A DNA stretch of 35,155 bases, taken from the NCBI GenBank assembly GCA_046724795.1, contig JBKOXF010000102.1, positions 1 through 35,155 on the forward strand. The letters run 5' to 3'. The translations under genes were made by a program, and so were the position numbers. Below the pieces are notes generated by a model. It made no database searches, was not told the origin of the DNA, and worked only from the letters and a program-made list of their open reading frames with translations. The DNA is from Actinomycetota bacterium. Lineage in GTDB: Bacteria; Actinomycetota; UBA4738; JACQTL01. Within the stretch, counting starts at the first letter, position 1, and each line of letters opens with the position of its first letter. Positions 1-27,795 of this stretch are shown one piece after another.

Positions 1-653
1 GCGGTCGACACCGCCAGGAGGATCCTGGTCGGCAGCGGCAGCGTGCCGTGAAGCTGCGAGTAGATCGTCTTGAACTGCGGCACGATGAACATCAGCATCG
101 CGACCAGGATCAACGAGACCATCGCCAGGACCACGACGGGGTAGGTCATGGCCGACTTGACCCGCTGTCGGAGCGCGACTTCCTTCTCCGTGTTGTCGGC
201 GAGGCGAAGCAGCACCTGGTCGAGCACACCACCCGTCTCGCCGGCCTTGATCATGGCCACGTACAGGCTGGAGAACGTCTTGGGGTGCTTGGCCATGGCG
301 ACCGACAGGGACGAACCTCGCTCCACGTCCAGCCGCACCTGGGTGACGATCTTGCCGAGCTGCTTGCTCTCGGTCTGGTTCCCCAGGATGGTCAGGGCCT
401 TCAGGATGGGGAGGCCGGAGTTGACCATCGTCGCGAACTGGCGCGAGAAGACGGCCATGTGCTTGGGCTTGACGTGGCCCGGGCGCAGGTTGATCTCCAT
501 GGAGAGCCCCTCGCGCTTCTTGTTGACCTTGACGGGCGTGTAGCCCATCTCGCGCAAGCGGCCCAGGACGGCCTGGTCGTTGTCGCCCCAGATCGTGCCG
601 GTGCGGAGCTTCCCCTGGCGGTCCCTGACTTGGTATGCGTAGTTGTCAGCCAA
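1..653 (-). CDS. pilC: Type IV pilus inner-membrane platform protein PilC (T2SS F family), 5' part; truncated by the window edge
   Basis: Not in the ORF track; translated by hand from TTG at 653: MADNYAYQVRDRQGKLRTG...VFSRQFATMVNSGLPILKAL...VERGSSLSVAMAKHPKTFSSLYVAMIKAGETGGVLDQVLLRLA...VKSAMTYPVVV. These are classic GspF/PilC motifs. It overlaps the pilT stop by 8 bp and has AAGGG upstream. Confidence 0.93.
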   Translation of the reverse strand, partial: MADNYAYQVRDRQGKLRTGTIWGDNDQAVLGRLREMGYTPVKVNKKREGLSMEINLRPGHVKPKHMAVFSRQFATMVNSGLPILKALTILGNQTESKQLGKIVTQVRLDVERGSSLSVAMAKHPKTFSSLYVAMIKAGETGGVLDQVLLRLADNTEKEVALRQRVKSAMTYPVVVLAMVSLILVAMLMFIVPQFKTIYSQLHGTLPLPTRILLAVST

Positions 654-19342: not shown

Positions 19343-19789
19343 CTACAGAGTTGCCGCATCGAGGACGAGCGTCACCGGCCCGTCGTTCACCAGCTTCACC
19401 TCCATGTGCTCGCGGAAGGCGCCTCGGGCCACCGAGGCGCCGAGCGACGAGAGCGCGCGGGAGAAGGCCTCGACCCGTTGGCTCGCGATCTCGGGTGGCG
19501 CCGCGCCGATCCACGAGGGCCGGCGACCTTTTCGTACGTCGCCGTAGAGCGTGAATTGCGGCACCACCAGGATCTCCCCACCGATGTCGGCGAGCGACCG
19601 GTTCATCTTCCCCTCGTCGTCCTCGAAGACGCGTAGATGGACGATCTTCTCGGCGAGCCGGGCGTCACCCGCGGGGTCGTCGTCGACACCCACGCCCACC
19701 AGCAGGAGGAACCCCGGCCCGATCGACGCGACGGGTTCTTCGCGGACGGTGACCGAGGCTCGAGAGACGCGCTGGAGGACGACCCTCAA
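19343..19789 (-). CDS. dtd: D-aminoacyl-tRNA deacylase
   Basis: MRVVLQRVSRASV, LRVFEDDEGKMNRS, PQFTL, KGRRPS and NDGPVT motifs. The TTG start overlaps the rel stop (TTGA). Confidence 0.95.
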   Translation of the reverse strand: MRVVLQRVSRASVTVREEPVASIGPGFLLLVGVGVDDDPAGDARLAEKIVHLRVFEDDEGKMNRSLADIGGEILVVPQFTLYGDVRKGRRPSWIGAAPPEIASQRVEAFSRALSSLGASVARGAFREHMEVKLVNDGPVTLVLDAATL

Positions 19790-22026
19790 CGCGGGACGAC
19801 GCGGTACGCGTCGAACACACTGTCGACCTTCTTCACCGCTTGCAGGACCGACGACAGGTGCGTGATGTCGGCGAGCCCGAATACGAACCGCAGCTTGGTG
19901 ATCCGGTCGCCCCCCACCGCCGAGGACGCGGACAGGATGTTCACGTGGTGGTCCGACAGCACGGTGGCGACGTCTGACAGCAACCGTTTGCGGTCGAGCG
20001 CCTCCACCTGGATCGACACGACGAAGGACGTCGACCGGCCGGGCCGCCACGACACCTCGAGGATGCGCTCGGGTTCCCGGGCCAGGGCCTTCGCGTTCGG
20101 GCAGTCGGTCCGGTGTACCGAGACGCCTTGCCCGCGCGAGACGAACCCCATGATCTCGTCGCCCGGCACCGGCATGCAGCACTTCGCCAGCCGAACCCAC
20201 ACGTCGGTCGCCCCGGGCACCACGACGCCCTGCTGCGGCTCGCGCTTGATCTTGACGGGCCGTGAGAGCGGGACGTCCTCGTCGGCCTCCTCCGGTTCGC
20301 CGGAGATGCTCCGCGAGAGCCGGGCCACGATGGACTGCGGCGACACGTGCCCCTCTCCGATCGCCACGTACAGCGCGTCCAGCCCGGGGTACTTCAGCTC
20401 CGCGGCCAACTGCTCCATGGCCTCTTCGGTGGCGAGCCGCTTCAGCGGAAGGTGCTGCTTGCGCATGGCGGCCTTCATCAACTCGCGGCCGGTCTCGAGC
20501 GCGTCCTCGCGGCGCTCCCTGCTGAACCACTGCTTGATCTTGTTGCGGGCCCGGGGGCTCTTCACGATGTGCAGCCAGTCCCGAGACGGCCCCGCGTCCT
20601 GGGCCTTCGACGTGATCACTTCGACGGCGTCACCGGTCTGGAGCTGGTAGTCGAGGGGGACGAGCTTGCCGCCCACCTTCGCCCCGATGCAGCGGTGGCC
20701 CACCTCCGTGTGGATCGCGTACGCGAAGTCGATCGGGGTGGACCCGGCGGGGACGTCGACCACGTCGCCCTTCGGCGTGAATACGAAGACCCGGCCTTCG
20801 TACAGGTCGATGCGGAGCCCCTCCATGAACTCGCGGGGATCCGACATCTCCTTCTGCCACTCCAGCATCGCGGACAACCACGCCAGCTCGGCGGCGTCGG
20901 TCTTCTTGCGCGAGCCCTCCTTGTACCGCCAGTGCGCGGCGATCCCGTACTCCGCGGTGCGGTGCATCTGCTGCGTTCGGATCTGGATCTCGATCTGGCG
21001 ACCCTCCAGCGCGACCACCGTCGTGTGCAGCGACTGGTACATGTTGAACTTGGGGCTCGCGATGTAGTCCTTGAACCGCCCCGGAACCGGGGTCCACAGC
21101 GCGTGGATGGCGCCGAGCGCGCCGTAGCAATCGCGGATGGAATCGACGAGGACACGGATCCCGACGAGGTCGTAGATCTCGCTGAACTCCTTGCCCCGCA
21201 ACACCATCTTCTCGTACACGGAGTACAGGTGCTTGGGCCGTCCCTCGACGTCCGCCTTGAGCTTGGCCTCGCGCATGCGAGCGTCGACCATCTTCGAGAC
21301 CCGCTCGATGTACTCCTGCCGCTCCCCCTCGCGCTGTTCGACGAGCGCCCCGATCTCCTGGTAGCGCTTGGGGTACAGCGTGAGGAACGACAGGTCCTCG
21401 AGCTCCCACTTGATGCGGTCCACGCCGAGGCGGTTCGCGAGCGGCGCGTAGATCTCGAGCGTCTCCGTGGCCATGCGCCGCTGGCGGTCCGCCGGAAGCG
21501 CGTCCGCCGTTCGCATGTTGTGCAGGCGATCGGCCAGCTTGATGAGCAGGACCCGGATGTCCCGGGCCATGGCCACCATCATCTTCCGGACGTTCTCGGC
21601 CTGCTCCGCCTCGCGGCTCCGGAACGTGATCTTGTCGAGCTTGGTCAGCCCGTCGACGATCTGCGCCACACGCTCGCCGAATTCTTCCTGGATCTGATCG
21701 AGCGAGAACTCGGTGTCCTCCACGACGTCATGCAGCAGGGCCGCAACGATGGTGGTGGTGTCGAGGCCGAGATCGGCGAGGACCTCAGCGACGCCGAGCG
21801 GATGTTCGATGAAGTCGTCGCCGGAGAGCCGTTTCTGCCCTCGGTGCGAGACCTCGGCGAAGACGAACGCTCGCTGGACCTGTTTGAGGTCCGCCTTCGG
21901 GTTGTAGGACTTGATGGTTCGAAGCAGCGGCTCGACGCCGGCCGGGGCAGCTGAGGTCTCCTGCGGGCGGAGTCGCGACAGGATGCCACCCCGACGCTCC
22001 ACCTTGACCTGCTCCGCACCCTCCAC
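19786..22026 (-). CDS. rel: Bifunctional (p)ppGpp synthetase/hydrolase Rel (long RSH)
   Basis: Intact HD hydrolase (HPLGVA, LLHDVVED) and synthetase motifs RPKH, RFKDY and YQSLHT. TGS (DFAYAIHT), ZFD (KCC...HRTDC) and ACT domains follow. A TAGACT -10 lies 6 nt before the GTG. Confidence 0.97.
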   Translation of the reverse strand: MEGAEQVKVERRGGILSRLRPQETSAAPAGVEPLLRTIKSYNPKADLKQVQRAFVFAEVSHRGQKRLSGDDFIEHPLGVAEVLADLGLDTTTIVAALLHDVVEDTEFSLDQIQEEFGERVAQIVDGLTKLDKITFRSREAEQAENVRKMMVAMARDIRVLLIKLADRLHNMRTADALPADRQRRMATETLEIYAPLANRLGVDRIKWELEDLSFLTLYPKRYQEIGALVEQREGERQEYIERVSKMVDARMREAKLKADVEGRPKHLYSVYEKMVLRGKEFSEIYDLVGIRVLVDSIRDCYGALGAIHALWTPVPGRFKDYIASPKFNMYQSLHTTVVALEGRQIEIQIRTQQMHRTAEYGIAAHWRYKEGSRKKTDAAELAWLSAMLEWQKEMSDPREFMEGLRIDLYEGRVFVFTPKGDVVDVPAGSTPIDFAYAIHTEVGHRCIGAKVGGKLVPLDYQLQTGDAVEVITSKAQDAGPSRDWLHIVKSPRARNKIKQWFSRERREDALETGRELMKAAMRKQHLPLKRLATEEAMEQLAAELKYPGLDALYVAIGEGHVSPQSIVARLSRSISGEPEEADEDVPLSRPVKIKREPQQGVVVPGATDVWVRLAKCCMPVPGDEIMGFVSRGQGVSVHRTDCPNAKALAREPERILEVSWRPGRSTSFVVSIQVEALDRKRLLSDVATVLSDHHVNILSASSAVGGDRITKLRFVFGLADITHLSSVLQAVKKVDSVFDAYRVVPR

Positions 22027-22063
22027 GGATCAAGTCTACCGGGAGGGTCGAGCCCGCCCGAGT

Positions 22064-22348
22064 CTACTCGTCCGCGGTTTCCCCGGCCTTGTCGATCTCC
22101 TCTGCCTCCCGGGCCTGCTGTGAGAGGGCGTCGACCTCCTCGACGGCTCGGAACTCCTCGGGTATGGCATCCGGAATCAGGGCGTCGGAACCTCGTTCCC
22201 CGGGTGGAAGCTTCGAGAGCTTCGCGTTCGAGTAGGGCTTTCCCTCCTGCTCCGCGAACAGCTTGCCGAGCTCGTCGGCCTCGTCGTCGGAGAGCCCGGC
22301 CTCGAGACGCTTCCCGATGAGCTCCTCGATACGCTTTTCGTCGACCAT
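22064..22348 (-). CDS. Small acidic hypothetical protein
   Basis: A 94-aa ORF filling the apt-rel gap, with GC-biased third positions. A TAGATT -10 (built from the apt stop) lies 7 nt before the ATG. Confidence 0.65.
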   Translation of the reverse strand: MVDEKRIEELIGKRLEAGLSDDEADELGKLFAEQEGKPYSNAKLSKLPPGERGSDALIPDAIPEEFRAVEEVDALSQQAREAEEIDKAGETADE

Positions 22349-22358
22349 GGTGGGAAAT

Positions 22359-22880
22359 CTAGTACTTGATGATGGAGAAGAAGTCCAGGTCTCCGAGCTT
22401 CTCCCGCCCGTTCAGGAACGTCAGCTCGATGATGCAGGCGATTCCCACGACTTTCGCGCCCAGGCGTTCGACAAGCCTGGCCGTGGCCCGGGCCGTGCCA
22501 CCGGTGGCGAGCACGTCATCGACCACGAGCACTCGTTCCCCTGGAAGGAACGCGTCCTTGTGGATCTCGAGGGTCTCGGTCCCGTACTCGAGCTCGTAGC
22601 CCTCGGTTTCGGCCTCCCACGGAAGCTTGCCCGCCTTCCGAACGGGGACGAACCCGGCATTGAAGTGATACGCAACGGGCGCGGCCACGATGAAACCCCG
22701 GGCTTCGATGCCCACGACCTTGTCGACGTTCCCCCGGCCGAAGTGCACGACGATCGTGTCCACGACGGTGGAGAAGGCCACCGGGTTGGCCAGCAACGGC
22801 GTGATGTCCCGGAACACGACGCCCTGCTGGGGGAAATCGGGAACGTCTCGGATCAGCGACTTCAGACGCTCCGCGTCCAT
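22359..22880 (-). CDS. apt: Adenine phosphoribosyltransferase
   Basis: [37 protein letters not shown] and the PRPP motif [11 protein letters not shown]. Confidence 0.97.
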
Positions 22881-22883
22881 GGC

Positions 22884-24692
22884 TCAGCGACGCCGCCGCT
22901 GAGCGGCGGTGGTCTTACGCCGTCGCTTGGGCACGGACTTGGTCCCACTCTCTCCGGCAGGACGAGGCCCACTGGGCGCGGTCGCCTGTGTCGCGGCGGG
23001 CGCGGGGATGGTGCCGCCGTCGCCGCCGTCCCCGGTCCGGACCGGCCGCAAGGTGGCGGTCGGCGCCGCTGCGCGCTGCATGGCCCGTGCCCGGATCTGC
23101 CGGTTCTTTGGCTCCCGCTCCTTCAACACGGCCAGGAGCGGTGATGCCACGAAGATGGACGAGTAGGTGCCCGACGCCACGCCGACGAACAGGGCGAACG
23201 CGAAATCCTTCAGCGTCTGCCCGCCGAACAACAGCAGCGACAGGATCGGGAGCAGCACGACCAGAGAGGTGTTCACCGACCGCATCAACACCTGGTTCAG
23301 CGAGGTATTGACCACGCCGGAGTAGGTGTCGCGGGACACGGCTGCGAGCGATTCCCCGGTGTTCTCCTTGACCTTGTCGAAGATGACGACGGTGTCGTAC
23401 AGCGAGTACCCGAGGATGGTCAAGATGGCGATGATCGTGGCGGGCGACACGGTCCGGCCCACCAGCGCGTAGATGCCGAACGTGATGATCAGGTCGTGCA
23501 GGAGCGCCACCTGCGCGGCCACCGCCATCTTCCACTCGAACCGGAAGGCGATGTAGACGGAAACGAGGATCAGGAACAGGATGAGGCCCCTGACGGCCTT
23601 GTCGGTGATCTGTGCGCCCCACGTGGGGCCGACGTCCTTCTCCGTGATGTTGACCGGGTTGGTCCCGGCCTGGGTGGCCAGCGCGTCCAGCAGTTGCTGC
23701 TGCTCCTTCCCGCTGACCTCCTTCACGTCGATCTGCGACGGATCGACCCCCGCCGTCTTCGCCACCGCGTCGATCACCGTTGATTCCGTCACGGTGGAGA
23801 GGTCGCTCATCTTGACCTCGTTCGTCGAGATGCCCTGCTGCTTGGCCAGCGCGGCGATGACGTCGTCTCGCCCCTTCACCGTCGGGGTGGGCGACGCGGC
23901 GGGCGTCGGGGACGCTGCGGGAGAGGCGCTGGGAGACGGAGAGGCCCTCGGGCCTTGTTTCTTCGTGGCCCCGGCCTTCGCCGCGCCCTTCCCGGAGGAC
24001 GCCGTCGGGGACGGTGCCGCGGACGCCGACGGGCTCGCCGATGGCGCGGGCGACGGCTTGGGCGGATGGACCGGGAGCGAGCCGAACCGCAAAACGACGG
24101 TCGGTCCGATCACGTCGATGCGCGTCCCGGGGTACCCCAGCTTCGCGAGCTCCGTCTGGAGATCGGCTGAGGTGAGGTTCTTCGAGTTCGGATAGGTCAG
24201 CGTGACCCCCGTCTGCTTCGCGGAAAGCGGATGCGTCTTGATGGTCGTTTCGGTGGGCGTGGAGGTGATGTCGGGATCGTCGAAGCCGTGCTCCGCGAGT
24301 GTGGTTTGGAGGTCCTCCACCGAAACGGCGGCCTTGTGGAGCGTGAGTTCCGTGGACGGCTGGCTGGCCAGGGTGGTGAGGGAGCTCGTCCGGACGGCTA
24401 CCTGGTTCCCGTTCACGATCTGCACCTGCGAGTCGGTGAACCCGAACTTCGAGAGCGTGTCCTCGATGTCGTTGACCGTGACCTCGCCGGTCGCGCAGTT
24501 GGGACAGGGATACGTCAGCAGTGAGCCGCCGCTGAAGTCGATGGAGAAGTTGAGGCCCCGAATGGCCAGCCCGAGGATCGACAACACGATGAAGAACCCC
24601 GAGAGGGCGAACCAAAACTTCGTCCGCCCGATGATGTTGACGTGCGGCACCTCGTGACCGCGGAACTTGGCCATCGCTCCCCGGAGCGTCAC
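22884..24692 (-). CDS. secF: Protein translocase subunit SecF with an enlarged extracytoplasmic domain
   Basis: LNFSIDFSGG, VGPTWG, FRFEWK, LLHD, ILGYSLYDTVVIFDKVKEN, RSVNTS and GTYSSIFVASP motifs. At 602 aa it is about twice the usual SecF length. Confidence 0.93.
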   Translation of the reverse strand: MTLRGAMAKFRGHEVPHVNIIGRTKFWFALSGFFIVLSILGLAIRGLNFSIDFSGGSLLTYPCPNCATGEVTVNDIEDTLSKFGFTDSQVQIVNGNQVAVRTSSLTTLASQPSTELTLHKAAVSVEDLQTTLAEHGFDDPDITSTPTETTIKTHPLSAKQTGVTLTYPNSKNLTSADLQTELAKLGYPGTRIDVIGPTVVLRFGSLPVHPPKPSPAPSASPSASAAPSPTASSGKGAAKAGATKKQGPRASPSPSASPAASPTPAASPTPTVKGRDDVIAALAKQQGISTNEVKMSDLSTVTESTVIDAVAKTAGVDPSQIDVKEVSGKEQQQLLDALATQAGTNPVNITEKDVGPTWGAQITDKAVRGLILFLILVSVYIAFRFEWKMAVAAQVALLHDLIITFGIYALVGRTVSPATIIAILTILGYSLYDTVVIFDKVKENTGESLAAVSRDTYSGVVNTSLNQVLMRSVNTSLVVLLPILSLLLFGGQTLKDFAFALFVGVASGTYSSIFVASPLLAVLKEREPKNRQIRARAMQRAAAPTATLRPVRTGDGGDGGTIPAPAATQATAPSGPRPAGESGTKSVPKRRRKTTAAQRRRR

Positions 24693-24699
24693 GGCGTCC

Positions 24700-26328
24700 T
24701 CACTCGGAGGCTCCCGCCACGGGCGCCGGGAGGGCGGTGGGTACGGGATCCGCTGCCACGCCGCTGCGCAGCCCGATCCCCCGCAGGTTCGACAGCTTCG
24801 GACTTCGCGCGATCAGGAACACTGTGGGCCGCTTGAAGAAGTACACGACGAACAGGTCCAGAGCGGTGCAGAACCCCAGGGTGAGGGCGAACCCGCGGAC
24901 CGAGCCCACGGACACCACGTACAGCACCGCGGCACCGATCGCGGTGACGATGTCGGCCGCGACGATCGTCCGCCACGATCGCTTGAACGCGGGCTGCACC
25001 GCGGTGCGCAAGGTCTTCCCGTTGCGGACCTCGTCCTTCAGCCGCTCGTAGAACACGATGTAGGAGTCGGCGGTGATGCCCATCGACACGATGATCCCGG
25101 CGATGCCGGCGAGGCTGAGGCGGTAGGAGATGCCCCGGCCCAGCACCGCCACGAACCCCAGGGCGAAGATGGCCCAGATGGCCATCCCGAACCACGTGAC
25201 CACCCCGAGCAGGCGGTAGTAAAAGGCCAGGTACAGCATCAGCAGGGCCAAGCCGACCAGCCCGGCGATGAGGCCCTGGTGCAGGGATTGCTTCCCCAGA
25301 GTCGGTGACACCGTCTCCACGTTGAGTCGCTTGAGGTCGACGGGCAGCGCGCCCTGGTTCAGGACGAGCGCGAGGTCCTTCGCGTCGGACTCGCTGAAAC
25401 TGCCCGTGATCTGGCCGTGTCCGCCCGTGATGGCGGATTGGATGACCGGCGCCGACACGACCTCCCGGTCGAGGATGATCGCGAGCTTCTGGCCCACCAG
25501 GCGCGAGGTGACGTCGGCGAACGTCGACGTACCGGATTTCGTGAGGTCGAAGTTGATCAGCCACCCCGCCGGGGTTCCCTGTTGAGGCTGGGTGTTGTAC
25601 ACGGCTGTCGCCCTGGCGATGGCGTCCCCTGTGATGAGCACAGGACCGAGCTTGTTGCGGGGGCACGCGGCAAAGGTCGTGCACGACACCTGCGTGAGGG
25701 GGTTGCCCAGATACACGACGTCCTTCTTAGTGAGGCTCGCTTGGGAGCAGGGTCCCGTCGTCGCGTCAACCTGGGCCAGCGGACAATCAACCGTCTTGGT
25801 CGTGTTGCAACTCGGGTCCTTCGCCAGCGAAGACGGGCACGCCGTGACCTTGTCCGCCGGCGTCGCGTTTCCGGTGACCTGCCGCTCCTCCAGCCTGGCG
25901 GTCTGACCGATGATCGCCAGGAGCCTGGACTGACCCTCCTGCTGGATCGCCGACTCGGCCGCCGCCTTCGAGTCGAAGTCGCAGCCGAGGTTCTTGTTGT
26001 CGCTTGTGATCGCGCAGAACTTCCCGTTCTTCATCGGAGTCGTGCCGTGGCCGAGACCCGGGACCTCCACCTGGATGTCCTTCGACCCGAGGCGCCCGAT
26101 GAGGGCCTCGCCCACGCCGAGCGCGTCCACGCGGTCGCGGATGTTGTTCACCGTGCGGTCCATCACGTCGGCCTTCGTGCCGGAAGGAGCTTCCAGCACC
26201 ACGGAGACACCGCCGACGAGGTCGAGGCCCTGCTGCGGCACGATCCCCATCACGAACGCGGTGATGGTGAGGCCCACGAGCACGACGACCATGCCGATGG
26301 AGAGTCCGAGTTTGGTGGTCTGCTTCAC
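24700..26328 (-). CDS. secD: Protein translocase subunit SecD
   Basis: GLDLVGG, RVDALGVGE, AIILD..VVSAP, ITGSF, GALP, VSPTLG, GITADSYIVFYERLKDE and VRGFALTL motifs. Confidence 0.95.
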   Translation of the reverse strand: MKQTTKLGLSIGMVVVLVGLTITAFVMGIVPQQGLDLVGGVSVVLEAPSGTKADVMDRTVNNIRDRVDALGVGEALIGRLGSKDIQVEVPGLGHGTTPMKNGKFCAITSDNKNLGCDFDSKAAAESAIQQEGQSRLLAIIGQTARLEERQVTGNATPADKVTACPSSLAKDPSCNTTKTVDCPLAQVDATTGPCSQASLTKKDVVYLGNPLTQVSCTTFAACPRNKLGPVLITGDAIARATAVYNTQPQQGTPAGWLINFDLTKSGTSTFADVTSRLVGQKLAIILDREVVSAPVIQSAITGGHGQITGSFSESDAKDLALVLNQGALPVDLKRLNVETVSPTLGKQSLHQGLIAGLVGLALLMLYLAFYYRLLGVVTWFGMAIWAIFALGFVAVLGRGISYRLSLAGIAGIIVSMGITADSYIVFYERLKDEVRNGKTLRTAVQPAFKRSWRTIVAADIVTAIGAAVLYVVSVGSVRGFALTLGFCTALDLFVVYFFKRPTVFLIARSPKLSNLRGIGLRSGVAADPVPTALPAPVAGASE

Positions 26329-26353
26329 GTGCGTCCGATCCCTCTGGTCCTGG

Positions 26354-26740
26354 CTACGACGTCTCGCCCGGCTCCTCGTCCGGGACGGTGGTGTCCGCGA
26401 TGTCGTCCGCGTATGCCTTCCGCAGGATCGCCGACTTCAGCATCCGGATGTTCGTTCCGGGTGCCACCTCCACCGTGACGGACTCGTCGTCCTGTGCGCG
26501 GATCGTGCCGAACATCCCCCCGACCGTCACGACATCGTCCCCGACACCCAGGCTCTCGACGAGGTCGCGCTGCGCCATGGCCCGGCGGCGCTGGGGCCGG
26601 ATCAACAGGAAGTAGAAGATCACGACCATCAGGCCGAGCGAGATCAGCAGGGCCGTCGATGAACCGGAACTACTGCTGCTTGCTGCGATCAGGGCGTCCG
26701 TGGGGGCCTCCTTCGGCGATTGAGCATACAGGCTGAACAC
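26354..26740 (-). CDS. yajC: Preprotein translocase subunit YajC
   Basis: FYFLLIRPQRRR, LGVGDDVVTVGGMFGTI and VEVAPG motifs. The start is uncertain. Confidence 0.93.
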   Translation of the reverse strand: MFSLYAQSPKEAPTDALIAASSSSSGSSTALLISLGLMVVIFYFLLIRPQRRRAMAQRDLVESLGVGDDVVTVGGMFGTIRAQDDESVTVEVAPGTNIRMLKSAILRKAYADDIADTTVPDEEPGETS

Positions 26741-26769
26741 TGGTTGAGCAGCAGAAGAAGCGGGTGCTC

Positions 26770-27795
26770 TCAGGAGAGCGGCAAGGCACCCTCGGGGGTC
26801 AATCCGAGGTGGCGGCAGGCCTCGTCGGTGGCCACGCGGCCCCGCGGGGTTCGCCTGAGGAATCCCAGCTGGAGCAGGTACGGCTCGTAGACATCCTCGA
26901 TGGTCTCGGTCTCCTCGCCGACGCTCGCCGCGAGCGTGGACAGCCCCACCGGTCCCCCACCGAACTTCGTCACCAGCGTGGAGAGGATGGCTACGTCAAC
27001 CTTGTCGAGGCCCCGGGAGTCCACCTCGAACACCTCCAGGCCCCCTCGAGCCACGTCGCCGGTGATACGGCCGTCGCCGCGGACCTCGGCGAAGTCTCGG
27101 ACTCTCCGGAGCAGGCGGTTGGCTACGCGCGGCGTCCCTCGGGACCGGCCGGCGATCTCCTCCGCGCCGCCCGACTCCACCGAGACCCCGAGGATCCCTG
27201 CCGAGCGCGCGACGATGCGGACGAGGTCCGGGGTGTCGTAGTAGTCGAGCCTGGGGGAGAACCCGAACCGCTCCCGCAGCGGCAGCGTCATGAGACCGGG
27301 GCGGGTGGTGGCGCCGACCAGGGTGAACCGCGGGAGATCCAGGCGGATGCTGCGGGCGCTCGGCCCCTTGCCGATGACCACGTCGAGCTTGAAGTCCTCG
27401 AGCGCCGCGTACAGCAACTCCTCCACGGGCCGGGGCAGCCGATGGATCTCGTCCACGAAAAGGACTTCGCCCTCCTCGAGGTTCGTGAGGATCGCGGCGA
27501 GGTCGCCTGCCCGCTCCAACGCGGGACCGGAGGTTGGTCGGAAGCCCACGTCCATCGCGTGGGCCACGATCCCTGCGAGGGTGGTCTTCCCGAGCCCGGG
27601 CGGCCCGGAGAACAGTAGGTGATCGACCACGTCGCCGCGGGCCCGAGCGCCCTCTACGAGCAGGCCGAGCTGCTCCTTGATGCGCTCCTGCCCCACGAAC
27701 TCAGCGAGGGACCGGGGGCGGAGCGTCGCATCGAAGTCGGTGTCTTCGATGCGAAGCACTCCGCCCACCATCCGGTCCACGCTCTCGACGTCCAT
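26770..27795 (-). CDS. ruvB: Holliday junction branch migration ATPase RuvB
   Basis: [56 protein letters not shown] and RTPRGR motifs. Confidence 0.98.

Follow-up and report, generated by a model that had tools for sequence, protein, structure and literature searches.

Triplicated half-domains and predicted nested P4 domains in the SecF ectodomain of an uncultured actinobacterial family

Introduction

The stretch of DNA analyzed here (the window; 35,155 nucleotides, contig JBKOXF010000102.1 of assembly GCA_046724795.1) comes from an Actinomycetota bacterium and contains the genes yajC, secD, and secF. In the SecF protein of 602 amino acids (aa), three beta-alpha-beta-beta units (A1 to A3), a linker, and three alpha-beta units of 28 aa each (B1 to B3) lie between the first transmembrane helix (TM1) and the VGPTWG motif. 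We report that both halves of the P4 domain are triplicated in this protein and in its homologues, and that the halves are predicted to pair concentrically as A1+B3, A2+B2, and A3+B1, with one P4-like domain set inside another.

The known P4 domain has the classic contiguous order beta1-alpha1-beta2-beta3-alpha-beta4 (PMC8277102, section 5.7.6.3). As described in the passages on SecDF in PMC5974789 and PMC8277102, P4 and the SecD P1 base share a sheet of eight strands, which is able to close up as a barrel, and SecDF moves the SecD P1 head by means of the proton-motive force.

Results

The SecF locus

The genes at the locus are ordered ruvB-yajC-secD-secF-apt-relA (relA/spoT), and the features of the central part are compiled in Table 1. 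The gene of interest had initially been annotated as secF, and the family models agree: its product scored above the cut-offs of both TIGR00966 (296.9 bits; cut-off, 160) and PF02355 (205.5 bits at residues 340-525; cut-off, 20.5). The match to TIGR00966 was broken in two by an interruption of about 225 residues. PF07549 (Sec_GG; residues 42-61, 24.9 bits; cut-off, 20.3) and PF02355 were the only Pfam families that matched SecF at E <= 1. The full-length structural model aligned to Thermus thermophilus SecDF (3aqp_A) with a VIA-align Z-score of 22.8.

The membrane domain is highly conserved, with a mean pairwise identity of 86% among 13 homologues. R471, located in the segment LMRSVNTS, was invariant in 13/13 sequences and aligned with the arginine of NQTLSRTVMTS in Deinococcus radiodurans SecDF (5xam), which we take to be a functionally essential residue of SecDF. 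SecD and SecF accounted for all PF02355 matches in the assembly (1.45 Mb in 116 contigs, 69% complete). This is a housekeeping SecF locus.

Table 1. Features of the yajC-secD-secF region (positions in the window)
Feature	Position	Strand	Basis
yajC	26354..26740	(-)	PF02699, 86.9 bits
secD, 542 aa (P0002), partner subunit	24700..26328	(-)	TIGR01129, 314.7 bits; PF22599 (P1 head); PF21760
secF, 602 aa (P0001)	22884..24692	(-)	Open reading frame; GTG start 7 nt past the secD stop
TM1, residues 24-45, followed by the Sec GG motif	24558..24623	(-)	AlphaFold2 (AF2) helix 24-45; Sec_GG 42-61
CPNC (C63, C66), beta1-alpha1 loop of A1, within a 4-residue insertion	24495..24506	(-)	Homologue alignment
A1, residues 56-105, beta1-alpha1-beta2-beta3 of the canonical P4	24378..24527	(-)	Strands 56-62, 89-93, 97-102; helix 73-82
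A2, residues 113-156, beta-alpha-beta-beta	24225..24356	(-)	AF2 strands 113-118, 141-144, 149-153; helix 125-134
A3, residues 163-206, beta-alpha-beta-beta	24075..24206	(-)	AF2 strands 163-168, 191-195, 198-203; helix 175-184
Disordered P/S/T/A-rich linker, residues 207-274	23871..24074	(-)	Predicted local distance difference test (pLDDT) <50 in both models
B1, residues 275-302, alpha-beta, predicted partner of A3	23787..23870	(-)	Helix 275-286; strand 294-297
B2, residues 303-330, alpha-beta, predicted partner of A2	23703..23786	(-)	Helix 303-314; strand 321-326
B3, residues 331-358, alpha2-beta4 of the canonical P4, ends in DVGPTW	23619..23702	(-)	hhalign; VIA-align rows
Membrane domain TM2-TM6, residues 359-530, including R471	23103..23618	(-)	PF02355
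C-terminal cytoplasmic tail, residues 531-602	22887..23102	(-)	pLDDT <50 at 543-593; homologue alignment

Six units in the ectodomain

The initial annotation, made from the sequence alone, had located a SecF ectodomain with triplicated half-domains at positions 23631-24524, which correspond to residues 57-354 of the 602-aa frame. The peptides quoted there were all found in the protein (A1, 59-105; A2, 116-156; A3, 165-206; B1 to B3, consecutive 28-mers at 275-358). The secondary structure it had assigned to the units is also that of the two AF2 models, in which every A unit is strand-helix-strand-strand and every B unit is helix-strand. With about 308-309 aa, the SecF ectodomain is comparable in size to that of SecD.

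There is no single contiguous P4 domain between TM1 and TM2, and P4 is built instead from the discontinuous units A1 and B3. The missing contiguous P4 is a departure in architecture and not in SecF family membership. The linker (68 aa) consists to 76% of P, S, T, and A and contains 7 lysine and arginine residues but no aspartate or glutamate. Among 19 homologues, its length ranged from 35 to 110 aa and its P/S/T/A content from 76 to 98%.

Homology among the units

The similarity between units was assessed by local BLOSUM62 alignment against 2000 shuffles. None of the shuffles scored as high as the pairs A1-A2 (z = 7.2), A1-A3 (z = 9.4), and B2-B3 (z = 8.0), and very few did so for B1-B2 (z = 5.5; 1/2000), A2-A3 (z = 4.1; 5/2000), and B1-B3 (z = 3.5; 15/2000). 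The nine A-versus-B pairs did not exceed chance, with 234-1773 of the 2000 shuffles scoring as high. Profile-profile comparison with hhalign, using 19 homologues per unit, yielded probabilities of 97.4-98.2% for the A-A pairs (E = 1e-11 to 6e-14; 2e-13 for A2 versus A1 and 6e-14 for A3 versus A1), 96.5-97.8% for the B-B pairs, and 0.2-74% for the A-versus-B pairs. Taken together, the shuffles and the profiles indicate that the A units are homologous to one another and the B units likewise, as had been proposed, and both halves of P4 are thus triplicated. Overall, the hhalign probabilities behind this homology ranged from 96.5 to 99.7%.

A single P4 domain accompanied by an unrelated insert is the layout that the initial annotation had named as its refutation. 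Nothing was found in its favor, and it is ruled out by profile and structural matches: compared with SecF proteins that have a single P4 domain (1x), the extra units matched the A half (A2, E = 2e-13; A3, 4e-12) and the B half (B1, 6e-14; B2, 4e-12), and ferredoxin-like structural matches were obtained for all three pairs (see below). We give this layout virtually no credence.

The fragmented state of this metagenome-assembled genome (MAG), with its 116 contigs and 69% completeness, could in principle speak for an assembly artifact or a decaying gene. Against such an origin, the reading frame is open, the units are only about 30% identical to one another, and Tandem Repeats Finder (TRF) detected no recent tandem repeat at the DNA level; the copies are therefore old and not produced by assembly. 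In addition, the same layout is present in 19 distinct sequences from independent metagenomes. These homologues rule out an assembly artifact, and the explanation as a whole is scarcely conceivable.

Two further observations concern the repeats. Copies of a 16-nt word, 81% identical to one another, are spaced exactly 84 nt (28 codons) apart in B3, B2, and B1 (23675-23858), where they code for the conserved L-x-A-L-A helix; a looser fourth copy is present at 24563 in TM1. An ESM Atlas look-up with residues 51-362 returned SecF-fragment clusters alone, at 0.78-0.80 and hence below the lead level of 0.9, and contained no structure.

Predicted pairing of the half-domains

AF2 models were obtained for the full-length protein (13 alignment rows; mean pLDDT, 63; units, about 80-89; predicted TM-score [pTM], 0.37) and for residues 51-362 (19 alignment rows; mean pLDDT, 79.6; units, 85-95; pTM, 0.59), and the pLDDT of the linker was below 50 in both. 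The pairing was read from the ranges of VIA-align matches to solved structures, that is, from the first and last aligned residue only. All 50 rows listed for the ectodomain model were single ferredoxin-like domains with 62-87 aligned residues, of which 23 spanned A1..B3, 19 spanned A2..B2, 7 spanned A3..B1, and 1 was ambiguous. The best row placed the P4 domain of T. thermophilus SecDF on A3..B1 (Z = 8.9; root mean square deviation [rmsd], 2.0; 73 residues), and 2rrn aligned to A1+B3 with Z-scores of 8.2-8.6. Among the 50 rows listed for the full-length model, 12 spanned A1..B3, 2 spanned A2..B2, and 1 was ambiguous. A crossed pair, i.e., exactly A2..B1 or A3..B2, was not present among the 50 rows listed per model; the ambiguous rows, one in each, covered 81..246 and 130..296.

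All three pairs were thus ferredoxin-like in prediction, with Z-scores of 5.8-8.9. Since Z-scores under 8 are a common background, the fold is assigned mainly from the homology of the sequences to P4. Foldseek found no match to the ectodomain model in the Protein Data Bank (PDB) at E <= 0.001, which is expected because the domains are discontinuous. A lone domain of 75 residues could account for no more than roughly a quarter of a TM-score over 312 residues, and the pTM of 0.59 therefore suggests that the ectodomain model fixes the three domains relative to one another.

The initial annotation had anticipated that AlphaFold would return three stacked ferredoxin-like domains in which A1 pairs with the last B unit and A3 with the first, and in the two models ferredoxin-like matches were obtained for A1+B3, A2+B2, and A3+B1. 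The concentric nesting of these pairs is therefore supported by prediction, although not proven, and the three-domain stalk envisaged in that annotation would be a putative geometry.

Distribution among relatives

A word-indexed protein search with residues 56-360 as the query, in which 8000 candidates were scored, returned 13 proteins at E <= 0.001, and 12 of them, with lengths of 566-676 aa, aligned over all six units. A whole-genome search of 41 relatives gave matches in 26 genomes. Within the family to which the window belongs, 8/8 other genomes matched along the triplicated region (7 complete ectodomains and 1 cut by a contig end). This tally, as well as row L003 of the TM-domain tree described below, includes an unpublished genome (G002), whose ectodomain is the same as that of the public protein P0010. 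Another unpublished genome (G031) gave a weak 1x match only.

Of 100 loci, 99 had a match to the SecF membrane domain and 88 had an ectodomain that could be parsed. The ectodomain was a compact 1x domain of 83-90 aa at 64 of these 88 loci, a 1x domain with a P/S/T-rich linker between beta3 and alpha2 (1x+linker; 111-178 aa) at 10 loci, including one incomplete parse, and a six-unit (3x) domain of 298-355 aa at 14 loci, which represent 8 genomes, several of them counted twice. Removal of duplicates left 19 distinct 3x ectodomains, and all six units were present in 19/19. The carriers of 3x SecF form one Actinomycetota family known from MAGs only, and the sister families have 1x or 1x+linker proteins.

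An exhaustive HMMER search of 1.84 billion representative proteins yielded 24 matches at E <= 0.001. Two were full-length 3x proteins, namely, P0005 (614 aa) and P0017 (621 aa), and the others were fragments, 1x SecFs that matched A1 or B3 alone, or low-complexity sequences. The initial annotation had suggested a survey for 1x, 2x, and 3x variants across Actinomycetota; 1x and 3x forms were present, and no 2x intermediate was found in the 88 parsed loci, the 13 hits of the word search, or the 24 HMMER hits.

Relationship of the units to the single P4 domain

The A half of 1x proteins was closest to A1 (hhalign E = 7e-26, compared with the 2e-13 and 4e-12 given above for A2 and A3), and the B half was closest to B3 (E = 9e-22, compared with 6e-14 for B1 and 4e-12 for B2). 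In the unit trees, A1 and B3 were interspersed with the 1x halves, while A2, A3, B1, and B2 each formed a single clade over 19 sequences, with supports of 87, 94, 84, and 98, respectively. All unit clades were lost from the B tree when the DVGPTW columns were removed. Judged by their sequences, A1 and B3 together represent the ordinary single P4 domain, one half each. Because each extra unit forms one clade across the 19 sequences, the six-unit layout predates the radiation of the family.

A tree of the TM domain placed the 3x and 1x+linker SecFs in one starred clade of 36 rows but was poorly resolved, with 31/75 inner branches open. A compact 1x ectodomain of 86 aa (L043) was nested within the 1x+linker clade of this tree, which would fit either a loss of the linker or more than one gain of it. 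The mean pairwise identity was 0.54 for A1, 0.37 for A2, 0.40 for A3, 0.45 for B1, 0.46 for B2, and 0.64 for B3, compared with 0.86 for the TM domain.

Cysteine pairs and glycosylation candidates

Both cysteines of the CPNC motif were conserved in 8/19 distinct homologues, and the 4-residue insertion that contains them was absent from the other 11. Their position in the beta1-alpha1 loop is presumably the one that CxxC occupies in heavy-metal-associated (HMA) domains. An assignment as an HMA site was rejected, as there was no Pfam HMA match and the pair was absent from 11/19 homologues; the resemblance is positional only. A thioredoxin-like CxxC was also rejected, since no thioredoxin-family Pfam match was obtained and the surrounding fold is P4/ferredoxin-like. 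The simplest reading is a disulfide that staples the loop. Four 1x+linker SecFs (L012, L039, L045, and L059) have no CPxC in the beta1-alpha1 loop but carry a C-x3-C motif (CPSGC, CPTGC, CPQGC, and CASGC) inserted in the beta2-beta3 hairpin. As this site differs from that of CPNC, these ectodomains seem to have gained cysteine pairs on more than one occasion.

Cysteines also occur in the partner subunit: the SecD encoded in the window (24700-26328) has 8 cysteines at residues about 100-225, in a stretch flanked by the matches to SecD_1st (56-92) and to the P1 head (230-330). At loci where the whole SecD ectodomain was parsed, SecDs beside 83-aa SecF ectodomains had ectodomains of 243-257 aa with no cysteine; those beside 1x+linker SecFs had 293-302 aa and 2 cysteines, and the one beside a 3x SecF (one locus) had 315 aa and 6 cysteines.

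With respect to glycosylation, a 549-aa frame at G000:C93:12250-12822 (L101, L102) gave a weak, split match to PF02366 (PMT; 24.9 and 18.4 bits). The same search also matched the Escherichia coli and Bacillus subtilis controls, so that such a match marks an enzyme of the GT-C glycosyltransferase type and not necessarily a protein O-mannosyltransferase.

Other features of the locus

The C terminus of SecF (residues 589-602; 22887-22928) is polybasic and follows the pattern K/R-K/R-K/R-K-T-T/P-A/P-A-Q/K-RRRR, in which K589, T594, A597, and the final four arginines were invariant in 13/13 homologues. The roughly 50 aa of tail before it are variable and disordered, and the 1x+linker relative L010 likewise ends in KAKRRRR. 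This terminus might bind anionic lipid, ribosomes, or RNA.

Long open reading frames overlap the genes in other frames or on the other strand within 19343-27618, for example, a 566-aa frame over secF (22915-24615). Family support was found for none of the overlapping frames in this range, and their number is expected from a G+C content of 66-70%.

Discussion

Considering the family models, the locus, and the predicted structures, we interpret this protein as the housekeeping SecF of an export module that also comprises YajC and SecD. It retains an ordinary proton-driven core, and its P4 domain is probably enlarged by two nested P4-like domains. A1 (beta1-alpha1-beta2-beta3) and B3 (alpha2-beta4) would form the canonical P4, able to keep its usual role with the SecD P1 base. 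A second P4-like domain (A2+B2) would be inserted into the beta3/alpha2 junction of A1+B3, and a third (A3+B1) into the same junction of A2+B2, while the beta3/alpha2 junction of A3+B1 would bear the disordered P/S/T/A loop of 35-110 aa. As A1+B3 could act as P4 and the membrane core is highly conserved, the pulling mechanism is presumably unchanged, and the two extra domains and the loop may be regarded as an appendage of the SecF ectodomain. As to its origin, a beta3/alpha2 loop that was already a long permissive linker, as in the sister 1x+linker SecFs, may have taken in duplicated half-domains. These would have arrived as an inserted whole copy or through tandem duplications that occurred in pairs and ended in the linker.

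Several results weigh against parts of this interpretation. The alignments behind the predicted pairing are shallow (13 and 19 rows), and the pairing was read from aligned ranges only. In a co-evolution test based on partial correlations between the distance matrices of the units, the nested pairs did not stand out: A1 correlated best with B3 (0.23), but A2 did so with B3 (0.54, compared with 0.15 for B2) and A3 with B2 (0.34, compared with 0.23 for B1), although this test is weak given the short units and 19 related sequences. The unit trees did not order the duplications: the support for an A2+A3 clade was 65, and neither A1+A2+A3 (P = 0.56) nor A1+A3 (P = 0.52) was rejected in the approximately unbiased (AU) test. 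Furthermore, the TM-domain tree did not recover the 3x proteins as one clade (3 changes), which would still be compatible with one origin, and the faster evolution of the extra units than of A1 and B3 fits weak constraint as well.

The shallow AF2 alignments and the stronger correlation of A3 with B2 than with B1, together with the modest value for A2-B2, would also fit six real units that are not arranged concentrically. The two membrane helices would still fix the A1+B3 pair; A2 would then pair with B1 and A3 with B2, or halves would be swapped between SecF molecules; a crossed topology is feasible with a linker of 68 aa. We consider this quite unlikely, since two separate model runs agree, neither contained an exact A2..B1 or A3..B2 row among the 50 listed (one ambiguous row each), and the top match on A3..B1 was the SecDF P4 itself.

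Granted that the predicted concentric domains fold, they may serve no purpose in export and be near-neutral ballast that has grown in a permissive disordered loop. The lower conservation of the extra units (0.37-0.46, compared with 0.54-0.64 for A1 and B3), the variable length of the linker, the restriction of the architecture to one family, and the sufficiency of P4 domains of 83-90 aa in the sister lineages are all in line with this explanation. On the other hand, the six units are kept in all 19 homologues down to an ectodomain identity of 34-47%, every extra unit is orthologous across the family, and none of the 19 showed loss or decay of a unit. Near-neutral growth is a serious rival, albeit a doubtful one, and our best guess is that the appendage most likely acts as a structural arm, scaffold, or spacer in the wall zone. 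A self-inserted P4 arm of three modules, as large as the SecD P1, that takes an active part in export, by binding emerging unfolded chains through beta-augmentation or by docking an extracytoplasmic partner, with a wall-spanning and possibly glycosylated loop and, in one subclade, a CPxC redox or metal site at the HMA position, appears unlikely.

The protein shares with T. thermophilus SecDF (3AQP and 2RRN) the membrane domain, the GG motif, the VGPxxG junction, the transmembrane arginine, the yajC-secD-secF context, and, for A1+B3, the fold of P4. It differs in that the canonical P4 is contiguous and about 85 aa long, whereas here its halves are about 225 residues apart and enclose two P4-like domains and a disordered loop. 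The sister-family 1x+linker SecFs (e.g., L010, L012, L032, L037, L039, L045, L059, and L090) are close relatives in the TM-domain tree and have a P/S/T-rich loop at the same beta3/alpha2 site, but they possess one A and one B unit, in ectodomains of 141-178 aa. Domain-within-domain arrangements of ferredoxin-like folds also exist elsewhere: in the regulatory region of aspartokinases, ACT domains are interleaved, with one threaded inside another. Foldseek listed aspartokinase ACT pairs with weak, nonsignificant scores (E = 0.03-0.07 over 121-142 columns), but these enzymes are cytoplasmic, unrelated in sequence, and have two such domains, not three.

The enlargement of membrane-adjacent ferredoxin-like domains by an inserted domain, which renders the host discontinuous, is well known from the resistance-nodulation-division (RND) superfamily. 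In the general scheme set out in PMC8277102, porter folds expand as beta1-alpha1-beta2-X-beta3-alpha-beta4, where X interrupts the beta2/beta3 hairpin; the examples given there are the SecD P1 head, the funnel inserts of AcrB PN2/PC2, HpnN PD3/PD4, MmpL, and MacB/FtsX. The SecF insert departs from this scheme, since it lies between beta3 (VAVRTSSL) and alpha2, and, unlike the RND expansions, it is a copy of the host fold that recurs at two levels. No SecF with more than one P4 was found in a full-text literature search (subscription-only papers were outside its scope), in agreement with the initial annotation, which knew of no described SecF of this architecture. One candidate, bioRxiv 10.1101/2025.04.25.650208, deals with Mycoplasma dome proteins and not with the P4 domain of SecF. 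Domain insertion into a porter fold is therefore already known, and what appears to be new is an insert at beta3/alpha2 that copies the host fold and is repeated inside itself.

SecDF is a conserved machine, and its P4 has hitherto been regarded as a structural partner of the SecD P1 base that does not vary. The data presented here indicate that P4 can be expanded at a site unlike those of all reviewed porter-domain expansions and, as predicted, by recursion of its own fold. The ectodomains form a natural series, from the compact 1x domain through the 1x domain with its disordered loop to the nested 3x form, in which the rise of a discontinuous domain-in-domain architecture from a low-complexity loop can be studied. 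The series also shows how the two kinds of half-domain have to be duplicated in equal numbers. Should the arm have a role, this would suggest that the Sec holotranslocon has been adapted, in this lineage, to the cell envelope of these uncultured Actinomycetota; if it has none, this SecF family would be a clean case of tolerated structural growth in an essential protein.

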